From: a virus
Lineage: Duplodnaviria > Caudoviricetes
DNA length: 64,000 nucleotides
Strand: one strand, 5' to 3'
Virus record (IMG/VR): IMGVR_UViG_3300012983_000040
Coordinates: 22,315 to 86,314 of that record
Part shown: positions 53,560-62,572 of the stretch, in pieces
Layout of the letters: each line of letters opens with the position of its first letter
How positions within the stretch are numbered: position 1 is the first letter of the stretch
Translations under genes and position numbers: made by a program
The notes under the pieces: generated by a model
The model's input: the letters and a program-made list of their open reading frames with translations, nothing else
What the model was told of the DNA's origin: nothing
The model's database searches: none

Positions 53560-54393
53560 TTATTGTTTGTCTTGTTTATCTTTCTTTTTTGGTTCCATTT
53601 CTGGATAAGTATCTCTCTTAATAAGTTCAAGTACTTTTTTATTTTTTGGATCTTTTAAGAATGCAAGAACGGAATCTTCTGATACTCCTAGAATAATCTC
53701 GTCTGCGTAAGTAAAAACTTTATTCTTAACTACTATAACACTCTTTTCTCTAGCCTCAATAATAAGAAGTCTAAGGCCAGTATCTGAACCTGAGTATACA
53801 TCTATAATCTTTTTAGGATCTTTAGCAGCGATTCCAAGTAGATATTCGGTAACTTCTGAATCTGGAGCATTTTTCATGTTCTTACCCAAAAGTCTAGCGA
53901 TAAATACTCGACCTTCAGCACCTTTAGCATCGTCAAAAATATACTCTTCCGCATCATGGCGAAGTTTTAGAGTGTTAACTTTCTTAGCTACTTCTACACC
54001 GGGAGCCTCAACATAAAGTTCAGCAACTCCATAACGTGCATGTGTTTTTCCTTCTGCGATTTCTCCATCTATTAATAGATTGCCTTTTGAATCTCTAGCG
54101 TCTCTCGACGGTGCAATGATAGGAGCATATTTGATACATTCCCATTCTGCATTATCGTAAGGATCTTCCAAATTTAATTGTAATCCATCTTGTACTTCAT
54201 AAACTTTATTCTCTGGAACTAATACTCTTCCAGAATTTCTATCATCATCAGACATAATCATATCGCCCATACTGTTGATTCTGCGAACACAATCAGGATA
54301 ACGCCCCGTCTTGGGATCTTTTACAGGCTAAATATAATAAATCTGACCTACTTTACCATAAACACTTCTTAAAACAATAATGTTTTTATCCAT
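53560..54393 (-). CDS. Conserved crAss-like protein immediately downstream of MCP, 277 aa; one TAG at codon 22
   Basis: ATG at 54393 (MDKNIIVLRSVYGKVGQIYYI[TAG]PVKDPKTG...) extends track ORF 53560-54270. Confidence 0.8.
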
Positions 54394-54420
54394 TCTCTTA
54401 TTAATTCATTAATTGTAAAT

Positions 54421-54445
54421 AGATGGGAGGACTAGCCTCCCATCT
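54421..54445 (-). terminator. Perfect 10-bp stem-loop just 3' of the MCP stop (terminator or mRNA-stabilizing hairpin)
   Basis: AGATGGGAGG-actag-CCTCCCATCT; the minus-strand U-tract is weak. Confidence 0.6.
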
Positions 54446-54468: not shown

Positions 54469-54497
54469 TTAAGCTTCTCTTAAAATAAAACTTCTAT
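54469..54497 (-). CDS. MCP exon 6 (29 nt)
   Basis: |AT AGA AGT TTT ATT TTA AGA GAA GCT TAA, immediately after the intron-terminal G at 54498. Confidence 0.8.
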
Positions 54498-57400
54498 CAA
54501 TTTGTTACCTACTAGGCTCTTTATCCTAGTATTCTATAGTTTCTTAGTTAGGTTATTGCTATAGTTCAGACTATATCATCATCTATTTAAGATGTCGGGC
54601 ACTCGTGTTAGGATTATTGTGTATGCTACTCACCTATTAGTCGTTAGAGGTTTACTGTACTTTTATGCATTTCCAGTACTTCCTACGGGATTGTCCACCT
54701 CTGGAGATTCCCCGTTTTCACCCGATTTGCTACTGACGTCACCATCAGAAGCCTCATAGTTTTTTATTTTATATGTTTTATGATAGATCCATCCAGAATT
54801 ACAATATTTTCTCATATGATTGGGATTACACTCTGGGTGTAATTTACAGAAATCAGTAAGAGACATAACCACACTTTCATTAGTTTGAACATTTTCTATT
54901 ATTCTTAACTTTTGGTGTGCTTTTGATATTTTATCTCTTGTTTCTTGGCTGTATTTTTTGCCACGATGAAAATCACCAATTTTCTTTTTAGCTTCTTCAG
55001 AAATTATTCTACCCTTGAGTTTTTCTGAAATTGCTTTTTTGGTTTCTTCTGTATGATGTTTACCAAACATACCATTTCTTTCTCCAAACATTTTTCTTTT
55101 TTCTATCCACTCCGGAGTTTGTTTAACCCCAGTACAGTCTGGAGTATAATCAAAATATTGATTTATACATTTTGGATCATCTTTAACTTCTTTTAATCTT
55201 TTCACTTCTCCTCCATTTGCTAATTTACGAGTAGCAAAAGTTTCTAAAATCTGTTTTTCTAGGTCATGTCTGTGTTCTTTAATGTAAAGTTTAGTCAATA
55301 TAGAACTAGATCCCATATATGGATCATCTTCAATTTTACATTTACAACTTCTAACGCCTATATAAAACTCTCCTGTTTTAGTATTTAAAATTTTATAATT
55401 ATAATGATACATAATATTATTTTTATTAGTACAAATTTATATAAACTTCTATACTAAAACAAGTGTTCTTCACGAAAAATGAAAAAATTAAGTAGAAGTT
55501 AAGATATTAGCTCTATCTTAATATAAAACTTCTATAAGGATTGAATACAGCGATTCCACTGTAACCCCAGTTGATAAGTTTAGAACCAGCAACTGTAGAA
55601 GCTACTAGACCTGAACTTAGACCATCTAAACCACCAACACCTGGTAATTTGTTGCTGATGAAGTCACCACCCTTTAGGGTGAACATCTCGATAGCGGGAG
55701 TACCACTAGTCTTGTCAGCAGTAAGGTCTAAGAATAAACCAAATCCCTTATTATCGCCATACTCGCGGCTGAATGTCCGATCTACCTTAAATGAAATTGT
55801 ATTACCTGCAAACTCATAAGAATCGAAGGTGGCGCCCACATTTACATAGCCGTTAGCTGCCTTAGACCATAGATAAGTGCCACAGGTCTTAAAGTTAGCT
55901 AGCCAAGCACTAAGATTTCTCTGAACATCATGCCACATCTTCTCATTGCAGAGGAAAATGAACTTATTACCAGTAGCAGATTCTGCCTTCTGACACATCA
56001 TGCTCATGGCAGTCTGGAATGCATCAACAGTAAGAATAGTATAAACATACTTAGATGCAAAACGTTCTACCTGAGGAATAATACCATCGCCAATGTAAAT
56101 GGGACGACCAGTGTCAGGATCAGAGATAGTGGCCTTACCATTCTTATCAACGTTGCACTTGTTGAAAAGTAGACCATTATTTCTTACATATAAGAAGTTC
56201 TGAAGAAGGTTCTTCTCAACAGTATCCATCTTATAGATAGTTTCACTCATCTTGCCGTTGCCTTCACCCTTGCCAATAGAAATAAATACATTTTCCATTG
56301 CTTTATAAAGAGCTGAGTAAGTATCGTCAACACGGTGAGTAGAAATATAACCTCTATGTTTCTCTACGTTTGATTGATACTTAACATACATTTTGTTAAT
56401 CAATATGTTGCCATATTGTTCAGACTATATCTTAATCTAAATATTTAAATACAAACCCTTTACAATGATCTCGTTTTCCTAATGCTACTTGTTTTGCATT
56501 TTTATATCCTGCTTTAACACAGTCAGTCATTGTATTAAATGTCTCTAAGAGATTTCCGTCATCGTCAAACTTTCCAACTTTACCTCCTGCGTATGGTTTC
56601 TCTACTCCATTCATATTTCTATGTTTTAATTTCTTCATAAATGGTAACTTTTCATAAGAGAATTGGTGCCCTAGAAACTGGTGTCCTTCTTTAATTGCTC
56701 TTGGTAAGTGCCCTGCTCCTTTTGCTGATGGATTTAAAAATCTTCCAGCAGAATTTACACTATCAAATTCTCTTTCAAAATTACCATCTAAATCATACAT
56801 ATAAACTTTCTTTCTTGGATTTGCACAATCTGGCAATCTGCCTCCAAGTGCTAGGTTATAAACATCCTCACGTTTAAGAAATTCTTCATTTACTAGTTGT
56901 TCTTCTAGTTTATATGCTTCTTTTTCTACATCAAATATTTGTAAAGTTGTTCTAATAAAATTCTTTACTCCATACTTTTTTACTGCATACTGAAAAGGAG
57001 TTTTTGGATTCATATAACTAGCTGGCCTATAAATACTTACACCATTTCCTATGTACCCATCAAAAGCTTCTGGAGTTTCTGTTCCATGAACACCAATATA
57101 AATTTTATTATTTATTTTATTAACTGTTTGATATACTATATATTTCATTGTATTTAAATTTTAGATTTATTCCATTTCGGAGTTTATTTCTCCTACGTCC
57201 TTCGGACTAGTCGTTGAACCTTCCTTGGTACTTCTCTTCGAGCTTGTAATGCCCAAGGCTTGGCTGCTGATTGTCCTTAACTTAAGGAGTTCCCAGCAAT
57301 TAGAAATATTTTTTTAATTTTACACTGCTTAAGCAGCGGAAGAGAGCTATGTTAGGTATATGATGTTCTAACCCTCTTCGTGTAATTCAGGCCATTATGC

Positions 57401-60400
57401 TTTATGTTACCATAAAGATTAGACTATATCATTTACTTAATATTAATTTTTAAGTAAATACCCATTTCAATTATCAATATATTTGTATATATATCCTTTA
57501 TGTTTTTGATATTTGCCTGACAAAACATTTTGGACAGCTCCTCCAACTTCTTTTGCACACTGTCTAGCAGAATCCCATTGTTTTAAAATATTACCATAAT
57601 CATCTATTTGAGCTACTCTTTTTTTCCTATTTTTTGGAGTACTCGGCTTGTTATAATTTTTTAATTTTTCCAAACCCCAAATGTTTCCTTGTTCATCTGG
57701 TTGTTTTAACTTAATAGCTTTAGTAATATTACAATGAGGATTTTTTAATTGTGCTTCTTGCTGAGTTTCAAATTCTTCTAGAAATTCTCCATTTGAATTG
57801 TACTTAAATACTTGTCTGGAAGAAATTTGCAATGATCTGGCTTTATCAAATGATTCCGCTTTTATAAAAGAAAAGTAATATGATAGTTTAACACAATATC
57901 CTAATTTGGTAGCTTGCATTATATTAGCTGGTGCCGTATTTGAATATCTTCCAGCTTCACCATAGGATTCAAATTCTCTATCAAATTCTCCAGTCTTTAA
58001 ATATCTATAAACTTTCTGTTTATTTATATTATTTGTATAATTTGATAAATCTATTTGATCTAGCCTATCAGTATTAAAATATGTATTTTTTATTCTATAC
58101 TTATATACAACTGCTCGTCTTATTGATGACGGTTGGACATTTAATTCATGCCCTGCAACTTCGTATGATGGATATTCTTTTAAAAATAATCCATTTTCAT
58201 CATATTGAAATACTTTTATACCTTCAGTACAATTAATAATTCCTCCTAAAATCATATTATAAACATCATTTCTGGCTAGAAAATTTTCATTTACTATATG
58301 TCCTTCTAGTTCATAGGCTTCTTCTTTTGTATCAAAGGTAGCAATAACTTCTCTCTTAAAGTTTGAAGTTCCATATTCTTTTACTGCTTGTTGAAACTTC
58401 GTTTTTGCTTTTTCATAAGATGTAGGTACATTAATATAAACTCCATTTCCTAAGTACATATCAAATTGTTCAGGATTTGCTGTTCCATGTACTCCTACAT
58501 ATATAAAGCCATTTATTAAATTCGTTGTTTTATATACAATATATTTCATAATTTACGCCTTGCGGCTAGTCGTTGAACGTTATACAATTTATTTATCTAT
58601 AGAATTACTTCCATGTATTAAAATTAAATTATATCTTCGCTGCTGATTGTCCTTTATTTTTTATAAAGGAGTTTCCAGCAATTAAAGTATTTTTATTTCT
58701 ATTAGTCACCTAATAGTGCCACACTCAAAAACTACACGAAAAGTTTTTCAATGGCATTACTCTAAAATCTAGTAGTATCGCCGACGTGATATTCGTCTGG
58801 ATCAATATGATCTGATAAATCAGTGGTAATTAGTCTACATTCTAGTACCCAGTAATCATCAGCCTTACGAATTGGTCTACTAATGCATTGGAACTATTGA
58901 TAAGTGTTGTCCGATTTCCAAATATCATACTTCTGATAGTAATTTTCCTTAAATGCGAAGAAGATTGAAGTACCGTTAGCACCATCGCCTTCTGGAGTGG
59001 CTGCTAACTCAACTCTTTTAATGTACAAATTATTTTTAATAATTTAGACTATATCATTTACTATTTGTGTGATACTTAAATATATAATCATTAAAGTACC
59101 TATTTCCCTATTGTATATTTTTTATTTTAGAAGCTGGAACTTTATACTTTTCTTTTACTTCTTTTATAGTTTCTAAAGTTTCTATAAAGTTCCCGAATTT
59201 GTCGAATACATCTACCATTATTTTATTTTTCCATTTTTTGTCAGGTACTTGTTCTATTTCTTCTAAAGAAATATAAAAGTCTTTGTACCATCCTTTATTA
59301 TCCCTTAGAATATCTCGTATACGATTCCAAGAGTTTAATTTTATAATAGGCATTAGCTCTTTTCCAACAAATTCACCGTAGAATTTATTATTTTTGTCAT
59401 ACACATAGAATTTCATATTAATATACTATATTCGTGGTTTTGGAATAAATATATCGACTAGTTTGTCTGAAACATAATATTTACCATCGAGTAAACTCTA
59501 TCGTTGTATAGCTGTGCATATAGTACATTCGTCTTTCCCTATAAAGTCTCCACATTCTTTTCTTGATATAAATTCCATTAACCATTTACCTTCTTTTGAA
59601 TACAAATGGGTTACTTTTGGAGATCCCCAAGGAATAGTAGAATATTCAGAAACATCAATTGTTTCTTTTGTACTCCAAAGTGAATCTACTAGTGGATGTT
59701 TATCATGTATAGCATATTCAAATTTTTCCATAGGAATACCATAAAAATCATATGCTTCTATTGAATAGTCCCAAACCTTCTAAAGATTTCCATTTAGATC
59801 GAATTGATATAATTTTTTGTAATTATTATATGATATTCCACCTAAACATGCATTATATGTGTAATCTAATTTCAAAAAATTTATGTCTACAAGTTCTTTT
59901 TCTTTATTATAAGCCTCTTCTTTTGTGTCAAAAATAAATAAAGTAGTTCTTTCAAATGCAGCAGTTCCATATTTCTTTACTGCGTACTAAAATGGAGTTT
60001 TCGGATACATATATGTTGAGGGCTAGTTTATATATACTCCACACCCAATATATCCATCAAAAATACTTGGATCATTTGTCTAGTGTACTCCAATATATAT
60101 TCTATTGTTTCCATTTATTTTACTTTCTTTATTTTTAGTTAAATATACAATATATTTCATAGTAATTCAGTTTTTCAGTTAATTAATAACTTACGGGTCT
60201 CCCCTAGTCGTTGAACGCTTCTGTCATCACAGACACGCTGCTGATTTGCTATTGCATTCCAGCAATTTAAAGAATTATTCGATGCAACTTACGCTGCAAA
60301 GGAACCACGTTGATTCGTTTCCACTTCCCATTCAAAATACATACTATCAATACTTCTATATTTATCACTCGACTTAGAGTCACGGTAGAAAATGTTTCTA

Positions 60401-61456
60401 AGAGATTCTGTTAAATATGAAGCAGTCAATTCTGGATATAGCCTTGATACAATGCCTAATCTAGTAGGCTTAGTACCTAAAAACTTATAAAAATCTTCAT
60501 AAGTGCGAGTTTCCAATTATGTTACCATAAAGTCATTTAAACTTTATTTCTTATACTTTATCATCGTATAAGTTCAGACTATATCATCATCTCAGTGAGA
60601 TGTCTTGCACTCGTGTCAAATATCAATTACTTTGTAAGACATACTTGGTATTTTTTCTAATACATACTATCTAATTAAATTCAAGAATTTTCTACCTTCT
60701 GTAGTTCCGCATCTAAGCATAAACTAATCTTCATTTCCGCCATCAGCTTTAACTACATTCCATGTTATTCCATACTTGTTTAGAAAAAATTCTCGAAGTA
60801 ATAAATTCTGCTCAAATGGGAGATATGTAAAAATTCTTAACATATGACCACATTCTATGCGTTTTCCTTCTTTATATGTATATTTTTTTGAAACACATCC
60901 ATCATCTAACCACCAAAGAACTAAAGTTTCTAAATCTATAAATTCTAACAATTCTTTTGTTATTTCTTTTTTACCATTTCTATACAATAATTCTCTAATT
61001 GGTATAAATGATTTAGATTGTTTTCTAAATTTATAAGTGATAAAAGTATTACTCTTATACTATTTTCCATCTTTTCTTACAGAATGTGTTCTTTCCAGTT
61101 TATGAACTTTTATATCTTTTCCTCCGCAAACTGAATGAAGTAATTTCGCTTTAAAAGTACAATACTCTTTCTATTTCTCACAGTGTTCTACTTCTATTCT
61201 ACCTTTTTCACTTATATATCCATCACCAAGTAAAAGTCCAATCAAAATGGACATATCTTTATTAGTTATTCTCATAATAAACTTCTTAATATTTGTTAGT
61301 CGTTGAACTTTCCCATCCAAGGGCTTAGCTGCTGATTACCCGATAACTTGAAGGGCTCCCAGCAATTCACAAGATTTGCATATATCATTGCTGATATATG
61401 GGGCAAAATTACTTACCCATCGTAGGGCGTTTTGTAATAAAATTTGCTACAATCAT
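54469..61456 (-). CDS. Major capsid protein, 473 aa after splicing: join complement(61415-61456, 60313-60513, 58751-59025, 57371-57392, 55536-56388, 54469-54497)
   Basis: Exons total 1422 nt and join in frame to MIVANFITKRPTMG|ETRTYEDF...EWEVETN|YIKRVEL...TTRFQSNAM|PELHEEG|YVKYQSNVEKHR...GIAVFNPY|RSFILREA*, which matches the crAss-like MCP sequence as I recall it. Every 5' exon ends in U and every intron ends in G. Confidence 0.9.
54663..55412 (-). CDS. Intron-encoded GIY-YIG homing endonuclease with NUMOD3 repeats, 249 aa, no TAG
   Basis: YHYNYKILNTKTGEFYIGVR...YMGSS; NGMFGKHHTEETKKAISEKLKG and similar NUMOD3 motifs. Confidence 0.85.
   Translation of the reverse strand: MYHYNYKILNTKTGEFYIGVRSCKCKIEDDPYMGSSSILTKLYIKEHRHDLEKQILETFATRKLANGGEVKRLKEVKDDPKCINQYFDYTPDCTGVKQTPEWIEKRKMFGERNGMFGKHHTEETKKAISEKLKGRIISEEAKKKIGDFHRGKKYSQETRDKISKAHQKLRIIENVQTNESVVMSLTDFCKLHPECNPNHMRKYCNSGWIYHKTYKIKNYEASDGDVSSKSGENGESPEVDNPVGSTGNA
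55432..55463 (-). promoter_or_regulatory. Possible intron-internal Bacteroidetes-type promoter for the intron-5 endonuclease
   Basis: Minus strand CTTG-20 nt-TAAATTTG, about 20 nt upstream of the 55412 ATG. The -7 box matches; the -33 box has one mismatch. Confidence 0.45.
55536..56388 (-). CDS. MCP exon 5 (853 nt)
   Basis: YVKYQSNVEKHRGYISTHRVDD...GIAVFNP-T|. Confidence 0.9.
56389..57370 (-). mobile_element. Group I intron 4 of MCP (982 nt), ORF in L8
   Basis: 9-bp P1 (exon GAAGAGGGU with GCUCUCUUC, U-G at the splice site). AATTGCTGGGAA, ACAATCAGCAGC, GGTTCAACGACTA and AAGATATAGTCTG. P8 strands AATCTAAAATTTAAATAC / GTATTTAAATATTTAGATT flank the ORF. P9 has a GCAA loop. Confidence 0.92.
56432..57148 (-). 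CDS. Intron-encoded GIY-YIG homing endonuclease with two NUMOD1-like modules, 238 aa, no TAG
   Basis: MKYIVYQTVNKINNKIYIGVH; KVYMYDLDGNFEREFDS and KVGKFDDDGNLLETF repeats. Confidence 0.9.
   Translation of the reverse strand: MKYIVYQTVNKINNKIYIGVHGTETPEAFDGYIGNGVSIYRPASYMNPKTPFQYAVKKYGVKNFIRTTLQIFDVEKEAYKLEEQLVNEEFLKREDVYNLALGGRLPDCANPRKKVYMYDLDGNFEREFDSVNSAGRFLNPSAKGAGHLPRAIKEGHQFLGHQFSYEKLPFMKKLKHRNMNGVEKPYAGGKVGKFDDDGNLLETFNTMTDCVKAGYKNAKQVALGKRDHCKGFVFKYLD
57371..57392 (-). CDS. MCP exon 4, 22-nt micro-exon
   Basis: G CCT GAA TTA CAC GAA GAG GGT; completes the AT|G codon and gives MPELHEEG. Confidence 0.85.
57393..58750 (-). mobile_element. Group I intron 3 of MCP (1358 nt)
   Basis: P1 exon UGCCAU with GUGGCA (U-G at the splice site); P2 CTATTAG-GTGA-CTAATAG. 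AATTGCTGGAAA, ACAATCAGCAGC, GTTCAACGACTA and ATGATATAGTCT. P9 TTATG-GTAA-CATAA; terminal G. Confidence 0.92.
57467..58549 (-). CDS. Intron-encoded GIY-YIG homing endonuclease with four NUMOD1-like modules, 360 aa, no TAG
   Basis: MKYIVYKTTNLINGFIYVGVH; repeats KVFQYDENG, KVYRYLKTG, QVFKYNSNG and RVAQIDDYG. Confidence 0.9.
   Translation of the reverse strand: MKYIVYKTTNLINGFIYVGVHGTANPEQFDMYLGNGVYINVPTSYEKAKTKFQQAVKEYGTSNFKREVIATFDTKEEAYELEGHIVNENFLARNDVYNMILGGIINCTEGIKVFQYDENGLFLKEYPSYEVAGHELNVQPSSIRRAVVYKYRIKNTYFNTDRLDQIDLSNYTNNINKQKVYRYLKTGEFDREFESYGEAGRYSNTAPANIMQATKLGYCVKLSYYFSFIKAESFDKARSLQISSRQVFKYNSNGEFLEEFETQQEAQLKNPHCNITKAIKLKQPDEQGNIWGLEKLKNYNKPSTPKNRKKRVAQIDDYGNILKQWDSARQCAKEVGGAVQNVLSGKYQKHKGYIYKYIDN
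58751..59025 (-). CDS. MCP exon 3 (275 nt, two TAG codons; absent from the ORF track)
   Basis: YIKRVELAATPEGDGANGT...GDTTRF[TAG]SNA-AT|. Confidence 0.87.
59026..60312 (-). mobile_element. Group I intron 2 of MCP (1287 nt)
   Basis: AAATTGCTGGAA, AAATCAGCAGC, GTTCAACGACTA and ATGATATAGTCT; P2 has a GTAA loop; terminal G precedes TACATTAAAAGA. Confidence 0.9.
59054..60160 (-). CDS. Intron-encoded GIY-YIG homing endonuclease, 368 aa, TAG=Gln
   Basis: MKYIVYLTKNKESKINGNNRIYIGVH[TAG]TNDPSIFDGYIGCG...PKTPF[TAG]YAVKKYG; joins fragments 59498-59731 and 59108-59416; TGA lies inside the intron S element. Confidence 0.87.
60313..60513 (-). CDS. MCP exon 2 (67 codons)
   Basis: ETRTYEDFYKFLGTKP...EWEVETN. 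Confidence 0.88.
60514..61414 (-). mobile_element. Group I intron 1 of MCP (901 nt)
   Basis: P2 ATATATCA-GCAA-TGATATAT. GAATTGCTGGGA, GTAATCAGCAGC, GTTCAACGACTA and GATGATATAGTCTG. P3 TCTTG/CAAGA; P9 TTATG-GTAA-CATAA; terminal G. Confidence 0.9.
60616..61275 (-). CDS. Intron-encoded two-motif LAGLIDADG homing endonuclease, 219 aa, TAG=Gln (4 TAGs)
   Basis: ILIGLLLGDGYIS and LVLWWLDDGCVS motifs; ATG at 61275, TGA at 60616. Confidence 0.88.
61415..61456 (-). CDS. MCP exon 1 (14 codons)
   Basis: MIVANFITKRPTMG, followed by intron sequence AAG TAA. Confidence 0.85.
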
Positions 61457-61473
61457 AATTTAAAATTTAAATG

Positions 61474-62541
61474 TTAATCTAAAAAATCGTCAATATCATT
61501 AATACTTATTTCTCCGTTTTTAGGCTAAGCTTTCCGCTTACGTACTACTGACTTAGCCTTTGCCTAGTTATAGGATCTTCCACCTTTAGCGTCCTCATAA
61601 CCTCTGTTATAGTTGTTTTTTGCAACTTCTGAAATCTTTTGTTTATAATAACTACTTAGTTGTGCAAACATCTCTGGGCCCTTAATATTCATCCAGGCCA
61701 TTCTGACTAGTTGATCTGGGTCAGCTAATGTGTTATTAATTAGCCTATTTCCTTTTTTATCATACCCAGTTAGGAAATTATATATATCACGTTTATCTTC
61801 ATCTTGTAACTCTAGATCTAAATCGCCAAGATCTATAACTGAAGCTCTGTTAATAGCATCATAAATAGAACGCTGGTACTATTCTTGTTGCTGCTGCTAT
61901 TGCCTTTGAACTTCTTCCTATTGCTGTTGATTATATAAATCTTCTTTTTGTTTATAGTCTGTGCGTAGACTTTGTACTTTTTTATTAAACAAATCTTCAT
62001 TTTGCTGTGATCTGTCTAACTCTTCTAAAGCTTCGTCTTCAGTTATATCTGGGATTCTTGACTTCAAATCTACAAGAAATAGTTCTTCATCTGACAAGTC
62101 ATCAATCTTATATGTTTGTTCTTGTGGTTGCTATGCAGCAGTGTACTACTCAATTGCTTGTTGGGCGATGTACTGATTATAATCCTAAACAGACCAATTA
62201 TTAGTACGCATAAAATTAAGTAGTCCAATTTCCTAATCATCTAGATCTGAATCATCTTCAGATAGAGAATTTAGAATAGATAACTAATCTTCATCATTTA
62301 AATCGTTAAAGTCAGAAGTTTCTTCTCCGTCTTCAGTTTCAAATTTTACAGCTCGGGGATCTACACCTTTTCCTCGTAGAAATTCTTCCAGAGCGGATCC
62401 CTCAAAAGAGGACTCTTCCCCTTCTTGAAGTTGTTCTTCTTCTCCAGGATTATCTAAATCTTCAGTTGTTTGCATCTAGGAAGATACTTCCTCATCATCT
62501 TCCATAAAGTCTTCTAAGTTATCAATTTCATTAATATCCAT
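61474..62541 (-). CDS. Acidic, Gln-rich protein upstream of MCP (putative scaffold), 355 aa, TAG=Gln
   Basis: MDINEIDNLEDFMEDDEEVSS[TAG]MQTTED...; TAA at 61474; position directly before MCP. Confidence 0.68.
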
Positions 62542-62572
62542 ATAACATTAATTCATTTTAATTGTTTGTTCG

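Follow-up and report, generated by a model that had tools for sequence, protein, structure and literature searches.

Organization of the capsid locus

The DNA analysed here, referred to as the window, is a stretch of 64,000 nt from the IMG/VR virus record IMGVR_UViG_3300012983_000040. It carries on its minus strand a major capsid gene of the crAss type that appears to be interrupted by five mobile group I introns, each with its own endonuclease gene. All coordinates below are positions in the window. The locus occupies 6988 nt (54469-61456), of which 1422 nt are coding and 5566 nt are intron, an intron share of eighty percent. When positions 61700-54300 are read with TAG as glutamine, short capsid-like frames alternate with long endonuclease open reading frames (ORFs), and the six exons (Table 1) join without a frameshift into 473 codons followed by TAA.

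Two uninterrupted capsid genes from human faeces, in the unannotated GenBank phage records MT835470.1 and MT835492.1, were located by tblastn with the largest exon, and the exon junctions were set by blastp of their capsid proteins against the three frames of the region. The junctions agree independently with a close relative (L004), whose intronless gene is also 1422 nt long and aligns ungapped across all five. The predicted junction peptides are TMG/ETR, ETN-YIK, SNA-M-PELHEEG/YVK and SNAMPELHEEGYVK. An initial annotation of the locus, made from the sequence alone, had arrived at the same span, the same six exons, 1422 nt of coding sequence, 5566 nt of intron and a 473-aa product; all of these figures were reproduced to the base. 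Its junction peptides and in-frame rejoining, and the alignment to intronless relatives that it had proposed, are borne out by six collinear blocks. The shortest internal exon, exon 4, lies in a region that is uninterrupted in relatives, where the protein alignment reads SNAMPE[AL/M]HEEGY[VC]K; its last 9 nt form P1 of intron 4.

The insertions break the capsid frame almost at once. Intron 1 begins AAG TAA, and an in-frame TAA follows after 8, 16 and 13 codons in introns 2, 3 and 4, in line with the early stops that had been predicted for introns 1-4 if left unspliced (TAA within 2-16 codons in each). The predicted U and G at the junctions were likewise found, all 5' exons ending in T and all introns in G. 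Two other kinds of insertion were considered and rejected. Inteins are incompatible with host-frame TAA or TGA codons within 2-16 codons, ORFs that have their own starts and the lack of Hint domains in Pfam searches; group II introns were discarded on the in-frame stops, the lack of a reverse-transcriptase domain and the lack of a group II match in Rfam.

Table 1. Features of the capsid locus and its flanks, in the direction of transcription.
Feature	Position	Strand	Length	Details
Upstream gene	61474-62547	-	357 aa, stop to stop	acidic N-terminus, Gln-rich middle; eleven in-frame TAG
Exon 1	61415-61456	-	42 nt	aa 1-14, MIVANFITKRPTMG; matches aa 1-14 of intronless L001 and L002; ends in T
Intron 1	60514-61414	-	901 nt	group I; guide ~61410-61396; 5' core 61226-61424
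Intron 1 endonuclease	60616-61275	-	219 aa	LAGLIDADG type; four in-frame TAG; PHROG 11023
Exon 2	60313-60513	-	201 nt	aa 15-81; 93% identity to L001 aa 15-81
Intron 2	59026-60312	-	1287 nt	group I; guide ~60311-60297; 5' core 60170-60276
Intron 2 endonuclease	59054-60160	-	368 aa	GIY-YIG-like; seven TAG; PHROG 314, E 6e-12
Exon 3	58751-59025	-	275 nt	aa 82-172 and two bases of the Met-173 codon; two in-frame TAG
Intron 3	57393-58750	-	1358 nt	group I; guide ~58728-58714; cores 58554-58689 and 57402-57433
Intron 3 endonuclease	57467-58549	-	360 aa	GIY-YIG-like; no TAG; PHROG 314, E 2e-23
Exon 4 (micro-exon)	57371-57392	-	22 nt	last base of the Met codon, then PELHEEG
Intron 4	56389-57370	-	982 nt	group IA; guide 57353-57339; core 57136-57345
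Intron 4 endonuclease	56432-57148	-	238 aa	GIY-YIG-like with NUMOD1; no TAG; PHROG 314, E 7e-27
Exon 5	55536-56388	-	853 nt	aa 181-464 and one base; 76% identical to MT835470.1
Intron 5	54498-55535	-	1038 nt	group I; ORF in P1 loop; contiguous core 54549-54759
Pseudo-exon	55507-55535	-	29 nt	first 29 nt of intron 5; near-copy of exon 6
Intron 5 endonuclease	54663-55412	-	249 aa	GIY-YIG-like; no TAG; PHROG 314, E 1e-30
Exon 6	54469-54497	-	29 nt	...YRSFILREA, then TAA
Hairpin	54421-54445	-	10 bp	perfect, G+C-rich; 24 nt past the exon 6 stop
Downstream gene	53560-54405	-	281 aa, stop to stop	follows the capsid gene in all relatives examined

Group I intron signals in the five insertions

In all five introns the terminal U of the 5' exon pairs with a G of the guide sequence, and the guides of introns 1-5 match the ligated junction over 8, 7, 8, 15 and 8 contiguous pairs respectively, this U.G pair included. 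In intron 4 the guide AACATAGCTCTCTTC pairs at 15 of 15 positions with GAAGAGGGT/TATGTT (the slash marks the junction), and intron 3 reaches 13 pairs of a possible 15. All five introns end in TG (omega-G) and have in common a GATATAGTCT(G/A)A motif, which is followed by a short hairpin and then by the terminal G.

Rfam returned no match at the gathering score when the whole window was scanned. That score is 50 bits for RF00028 (Intron_gpI), and it took E-value mode or a narrower search to bring the cores into view; under E-value thresholds RF00028 was the sole family with significant matches. The scores are depressed because an ORF of 0.66-1.1 kb splits each core. They amounted to 54.5 bits for intron 1 (E 9e-13, in a 1.3-kb search), 38.8 bits (E 3e-7) and 24.6 bits for the first and second segments of intron 3, 47.7 bits for intron 4 (E 7e-10) and 44.5 bits for intron 5 (E 2.5e-10); intron 2 is taken up below. 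Another relative (L031) has at the intron 1 site an intron that lacks an ORF, shares the 5' core and the 3' end of intron 1 and scored 84 bits. The covariance-model scan suggested by the initial annotation thus came out empty at the gathering score and positive with E-value thresholds, and its assignment of all five insertions to group I agrees with the U.G guide pairing, the terminal G, the RF00028 matches and the homologues in other genomes.

Covariation was examined in the intron 4 family, in which homologues 74-83% identical occupy the same site in 7 relatives. Among nine homologues of the 5' half, compensatory double changes were found at 19 of 45 predicted pairs, and the consensus recovered P2, P3, P4, P5, P6, P7.1 and P7.2. 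Since P7.1 and P7.2 mark subgroup IA, intron 4 is placed there. Intron 5 has a different layout: its guide CTATGAGG (~54759-54752) is located 770 nt into the intron, within the 3' end of its endonuclease gene, which places the ORF in the P1 loop. Here too the guide co-varies with the junction, which reads ATAG in the window and ACAG in L031, where the guide CTGTGAGG carries the compensatory change.

The 3' end of intron 3 (57398-57431, minus strand), from the P7 strand to P9, matches nine Lak megaphage genomes at 34 of 34 positions; this 34-nt match was the only one returned by megablast of the locus against GenBank phages. In Prevotella phage Lak-B1 (L163, MK250020.1) the matching stretch lies at 2501-2534, the motifs GTTCAACGACTA and GATATAGTCT can be seen by eye in its flanks and an ORF ends just upstream. 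These sequence features give the stretch the appearance of a related group I intron; scanned with Rfam, the Lak-B1 locus produced no match at E <= 0.01.

Endonuclease genes within the introns

Each intron holds one ORF with PHROG or Pfam matches, as expected from the claim that every intron has its own homing endonuclease. The intron 1 ORF, read with TAG as glutamine, matches Pfam LAGLIDADG_2 (PF03161) at 72.1 bits (cut-off 25). The enzymes of introns 2-5 match PHROG 314, annotated 'homing endonuclease', and have (Y/N)-x-(V/I)-Y...YIG motifs and NUMOD modules, including NUMOD1 at 28.2 bits together with an I-HmuI-like NUMOD domain in intron 3, and NUMOD3 at 39.5 bits in intron 5. Those of introns 2, 3 and 4 are paralogues, 58-62% identical in the N-terminal domain (62% for intron 2 versus intron 4), and that of intron 5 is a more distant relative (32% identical). 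A sequence search of the PDB with the intron 4 endonuclease gave no meaningful match. Compared with their homologues in relative L006, the endonucleases of introns 2, 4 and 5 have dN/dS ratios of 0.08, 0.08 and 0.30 respectively, which indicates that they are maintained as proteins under purifying selection.

Identity, copy number and constraint of the host gene

The identification of the host gene as a crAss-type major capsid gene, already made in the initial annotation, is supported by Pfam and by full-length collinearity. Exon 5 matches Crass_capsid (PF23898) with 39.5 bits (cut-off 27) over profile positions 191-389, and exon 3 matches positions 102-163 of the same profile, in the expected order. 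PHROG 11589, 'major head protein', agrees with this identity, and the alignment of the 473-aa product with the intronless 474-aa (MT835470.1) and 475-aa (MT835492.1) proteins runs over the full length. Introns 2, 3 and 4 are located in the most conserved 6-11% of the capsid protein; introns 1 and 5 are in regions of average conservation.

Neither flanking gene has a match in Pfam or PHROG. The upstream gene, whose frame stays open only with TAG as glutamine, is homologous to the gene that precedes the capsid gene in MT835470.1 and probably encodes the scaffold protein; the frame of the downstream gene contains a single TAG, upstream of an ATG at 54270. As both are homologous to neighbours of intronless capsid genes, the locus is orthologous to theirs.

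The spliced coding sequence has a dN/dS of 0.056 by comparison with L004, and the two smallest exons, 4 and 6, differ from L004 by synonymous changes only. A single capsid match was found in the 86,314-nt record from which the window is taken, so that the intact second copy by which the initial annotation would have recognized a relic was not found there. That record is a fragment, estimated to be 47% complete, and this leaves some room for a different reading, namely that the interrupted gene is a decaying relic, the capsid being made from a second, uninterrupted gene in the half of the genome that the record lacks. We consider this very improbable: the six exons are intact, in phase and under the constraint just described; their neighbours are those that flank the single capsid gene in relatives; and there is only one capsid match in each of three complete relatives whose capsid genes carry introns, terminal repeats closing two of these genomes. 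The intron-bearing capsid genes are on this evidence the working copies of the clade, and the low dN/dS together with the single copy in those complete genomes indicates that the capsid gene is live.

Probable use of TAG as a glutamine codon

With two in-frame TAG codons in exon 3, the capsid frame stays open only when TAG is taken as glutamine. Both align with glutamine in the reference genes: MT835470.1 has CAA/CAG at these positions, and in MT835492.1 the second position is itself TAG. The endonuclease ORFs of introns 1 and 2 contain no internal stop other than TAG, and TAG alternates with CAA at the same positions between the intron 2 enzyme and its L006 homologue. Recoding of TAG to glutamine in late genes, sometimes with no detectable suppressor, has been described for crAss-like phages (Yutin et al., 2021, PMC7886860). 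In L006 the enzymes homologous to those of introns 4 and 5 carry 2 and 4 TAG codons, and the copies in the window carry none; orthologous intron ORFs of close relatives thus vary in how many TAG codons they contain.

A separate observation concerns the starts of introns 3 and 4. Intron 4 (57370-57332) begins with TAG and has its next in-frame TAG inside the guide sequence, and in intron 3 (58750-58703) TAG is likewise the first in-frame stop. Ribosomes using the standard code would halt at or near the 5' splice sites of these two introns; with TAG read as glutamine they would continue past the guide sequences to the TAA at codon 13 (intron 4) or codon 16 (intron 3).

Intron 5 and the duplicated gene end

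Intron 5 opens with the pseudo-exon, which duplicates the final nine codons and the stop, and a message that retained it would end ...FILRQS* in place of the ...FILREA* of the spliced form. Its splicing would accordingly be dispensable, leaving four obligatory splices; the initial annotation had put the number at 'at least four', in agreement with the early TAA codons brought by introns 1-4 and the gene end duplicated by intron 5. The same duplication of pseudo-exon and exon 6 accompanies intron 5 in L006, L031 and L078.

Is intron 5 in practice left unspliced, so that the capsid protein ends ...FILRQS*, the remainder is a mobile cassette in the 3' untranslated region and only four introns work? 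We think this fairly unlikely, while granting that several observations fit it. The first 29 nt of the intron encode a C-terminus of the same length, followed by TAA; the duplicated end recurs in three other genomes; the serine codon of the L006 pseudo-exon differs at all three positions (AGC versus TCT) and yet still specifies serine; and a homologous endonuclease gene follows the intact capsid gene, with no ribozyme, in L021 and L076. Against these stands the conservation of exon 6 itself. The window, L006 and L031 share its peptide YRSFILREA unchanged although 5-7 nucleotides differ, and this peptide equals the C-terminus of intronless capsid genes (L004 and L029 both end ...FILREA*), from which we infer that exon 6 is translated and hence that intron 5 is spliced. 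In addition, the ribozyme core of intron 5 is intact, its guide matches the junction and co-varies with it, and the hairpin downstream of the gene follows exon 6 and not the pseudo-exon. This hairpin is possibly the end of the transcript; a terminator scan did not flag it, because its T-run is short. Most likely both C-terminal forms of the capsid protein, REA and RQS, are made.

An alternative register for intron 5, with the splice after the T at repeat position 21, obeys the U/G rule but gives ...FILR* and has no guide support; it was rejected. The free-standing homologues of the intron 5 endonuclease, each 230 aa long (L021, 6894-7583; L076, 8941-9630), lie between the intact capsid gene and the next gene and have no ribozyme motifs; they may be precursors or remnants of the intron 5 cassette.

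Distribution of the introns among related phages

About 160 related loci were collected in two scans of IMG/VR, with some contigs fetched twice. The capsid gene is uninterrupted in about 142 of them and has one to three introns in the rest. The closest relatives, L004 and L005 (91% amino acid identity), have none. Homologues of introns 2, 4 and 5 are present in L006, with 80, 82 and 75% nucleotide identity; L031 has intron 4 together with ORF-less counterparts of introns 1 and 5; and a further homologue of intron 5 occurs in L078. The intron 4 site is occupied in seven further genomes besides L006 and L031, and the intron 3 site (codon 173) is empty in every fetched relative. Other relatives have introns near aa 187, 200, 253, 276, 391, 414 and 459 (L070-L073 at aa 414, L077-L083 at the others), and with these at least seven further sites the clade uses at least twelve insertion sites in its capsid gene. 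Presence or absence at fixed sites among close relatives is the pattern that homing would be expected to leave. The contigs of relatives reach 185 kb, complete ones measuring 161-179 kb, and the intron density is high; these features bear only indirectly on a possible placement in the Zeta group.

These relatives also bear on the possibility that introns of different phage strains were joined in a chimeric contig. The source is metagenomic and related intron cores are repeated within 7 kb, but the repeats are only about 60-70% identical, too diverged for reads to be mis-joined. Moreover, the exon sequence on either side of every intron is the correct, collinear one; the independent, complete L006 has introns 2, 4 and 5 in the same order, and L031 has introns 1, 4 and 5 together. 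We therefore give an assembly artefact next to no probability.

A probably live capsid gene invaded at five sites

We conclude that this is very probably the live, single-copy capsid gene of a crAss-like gut phage, with TAG read as glutamine, into which mobile group I introns, each bearing an endonuclease gene in a peripheral loop, have moved at five sites. The anatomy of the locus, its homology, the RNA-structure signals and the selection acting on exons, ribozyme and endonucleases are observed; splicing and homing are the processes by which we would explain them.

Several points weigh against this conclusion. Splicing has been deduced from sequence. Only intron 1 reaches the Rfam gathering score, and it does so only in the narrow search; intron 2 scores just 17.2 bits (E 0.14). 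The reading of TAG as glutamine is drawn from alignments, and neither the window nor the 86-kb record yielded any tRNA, suppressor or other, with ARAGORN. It is formally possible that a second capsid gene lies in the half of the genome missing from the record. Lastly, Pfam GIY-YIG (PF01541) was matched only below its cut-off of 22.6 bits, by the enzymes of intron 4 (16.4 bits) and intron 3 (9.4 bits); the intron 2 ORF had no Pfam match of GIY-YIG type, and that of intron 5 matched only SegE_GIY-YIG, at 10.4 bits. For this reason we name these enzymes GIY-YIG-like and do not treat them as proven members of the family.

The low score of intron 2 raises the question of whether at least one insertion, most plausibly intron 2 or 3, is not autocatalytic, being either helped by a protein or dead, in which case the assembled variant would be non-viable. 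The site of intron 3 is unique to the window, so no covariation test is possible for it, and a metagenomic contig can represent a defective genome. Even so, we regard such a loss as quite improbable. Intron 2 makes seven contiguous pairs with U.G, has the GATATAGTCT motif and ends in G, and its full-length homologue, 80% identical, occupies the same site in L006/G001, whose genome is complete and has terminal repeats; the endonuclease there is under purifying selection. The guide of intron 3 pairs at 13 of 15 positions with U.G, and this intron has the terminal G and two Rfam segments; the exons flanking both introns are themselves under purifying selection.

If the capsid gene is indeed a live gene with five functional introns, its late pre-mRNA would fold into five ribozymes, each guide pairing with the end of the upstream exon (with U.G at the cleavage site) and with the start of the downstream exon. 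The introns would then remove themselves by two guanosine-dependent transesterifications, and the ligated 1422-nt message would be translated into the 473-aa capsid protein; removal would be obligatory for introns 1-4 and optional for intron 5. During co-infection the endonucleases would cut intronless capsid alleles, into which the introns would be copied, and such homing would explain why some close relatives have these introns and others do not. A further proposal is that the five ribozymes are more than parasites and that capsid output is gated by the four splices and by TAG suppression, with ribosomes reading through the guides of introns 3 and 4 and intron 5 adding the REA and RQS isoforms, so that the arrangement would serve as a switch for timing or quality that links the change of code to virion assembly; we consider this improbable.

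The locus shows how far a phage tolerates selfish elements in its most heavily expressed gene. It offers a natural test bed for the folding and splicing of several ribozymes on one bacterial mRNA while ribosomes trail the polymerase, for the coexistence of neighbouring homing sites only 22 nt apart, and for the ways in which introns soften their cost, as with the pseudo-exon of intron 5. Annotation that does not model both introns and TAG as glutamine will overlook this clade's capsid genes or give them in fragments.

Comparison with known systems

The td, nrdB and sunY genes of phage T4, which belong to nucleotide metabolism, contain one group IA2 intron each, with enzymes of the I-TevI type. 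The introns described here resemble them in having a group IA ribozyme with P7.1 and P7.2, a GIY-YIG-like enzyme with NUMOD-like modules in a peripheral loop and an in-frame stop shortly past the 5' splice site; they differ in that five are found in one structural gene and that one has its ORF in the P1 loop. Landthaler and Shub are said to have described, in 1999, three group I introns in orf142 of Staphylococcus phage Twort, mostly without endonuclease ORFs. The capsid gene is similar in combining several related group I introns in one phage gene, with five instead of three. Endonuclease cassettes of fungal mitochondria bring a substitute 3' gene end, for example in Allomyces atp6. Intron 5 likewise supplies its own copy of the last codons, so that the gene still ends correctly, but unlike the Allomyces case it is also an intact group I ribozyme and could restore the original end.

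In the Jug jumbo gut phages, associated with Bacteroides/Phocaeicola, the essential genes terL, nrdD and that for DNA polymerase are split by group I introns and endonuclease genes, and 37 of 76 predicted introns were confirmed as spliced by metatranscriptome reads (Sci Adv 2026, PMC12880540). These phages form a different clade, their introns are mostly ~206 nt long and their capsid gene is not reported to be split (PMC12880540).

The closest parallels come from crAss-like phages themselves. Delta-group members typically have group I introns in the capsid gene, and Zeta-group genomes, of 145-192 kb, have up to 14 introns; one Zeta capsid gene is in five fragments, with intron-type domains in three of its four insertions (Fig. 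7a in Yutin et al., 2021, PMC7886860). That example shares with the present one a crAss-type capsid gene split by several endonuclease-bearing group I introns, and the recoding of stops in late genes. Compared by description, it has four insertions and no recoded stops in the gene itself, whereas the gene studied here has six exons and five insertions, each with an endonuclease ORF and a ribozyme core, TAG as glutamine both within capsid exons and in two endonucleases, a 22-nt micro-exon and a terminal intron whose splicing is optional. The 'extreme density' ascribed to the locus in the initial annotation is accordingly not supported as worded, five being one more than in that four-insertion capsid gene, from a group whose genomes carry up to 14 introns (PMC7886860). 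Introns in the capsid genes of crAss-like phages have been known since 2021, and the present gene extends that picture without changing it.

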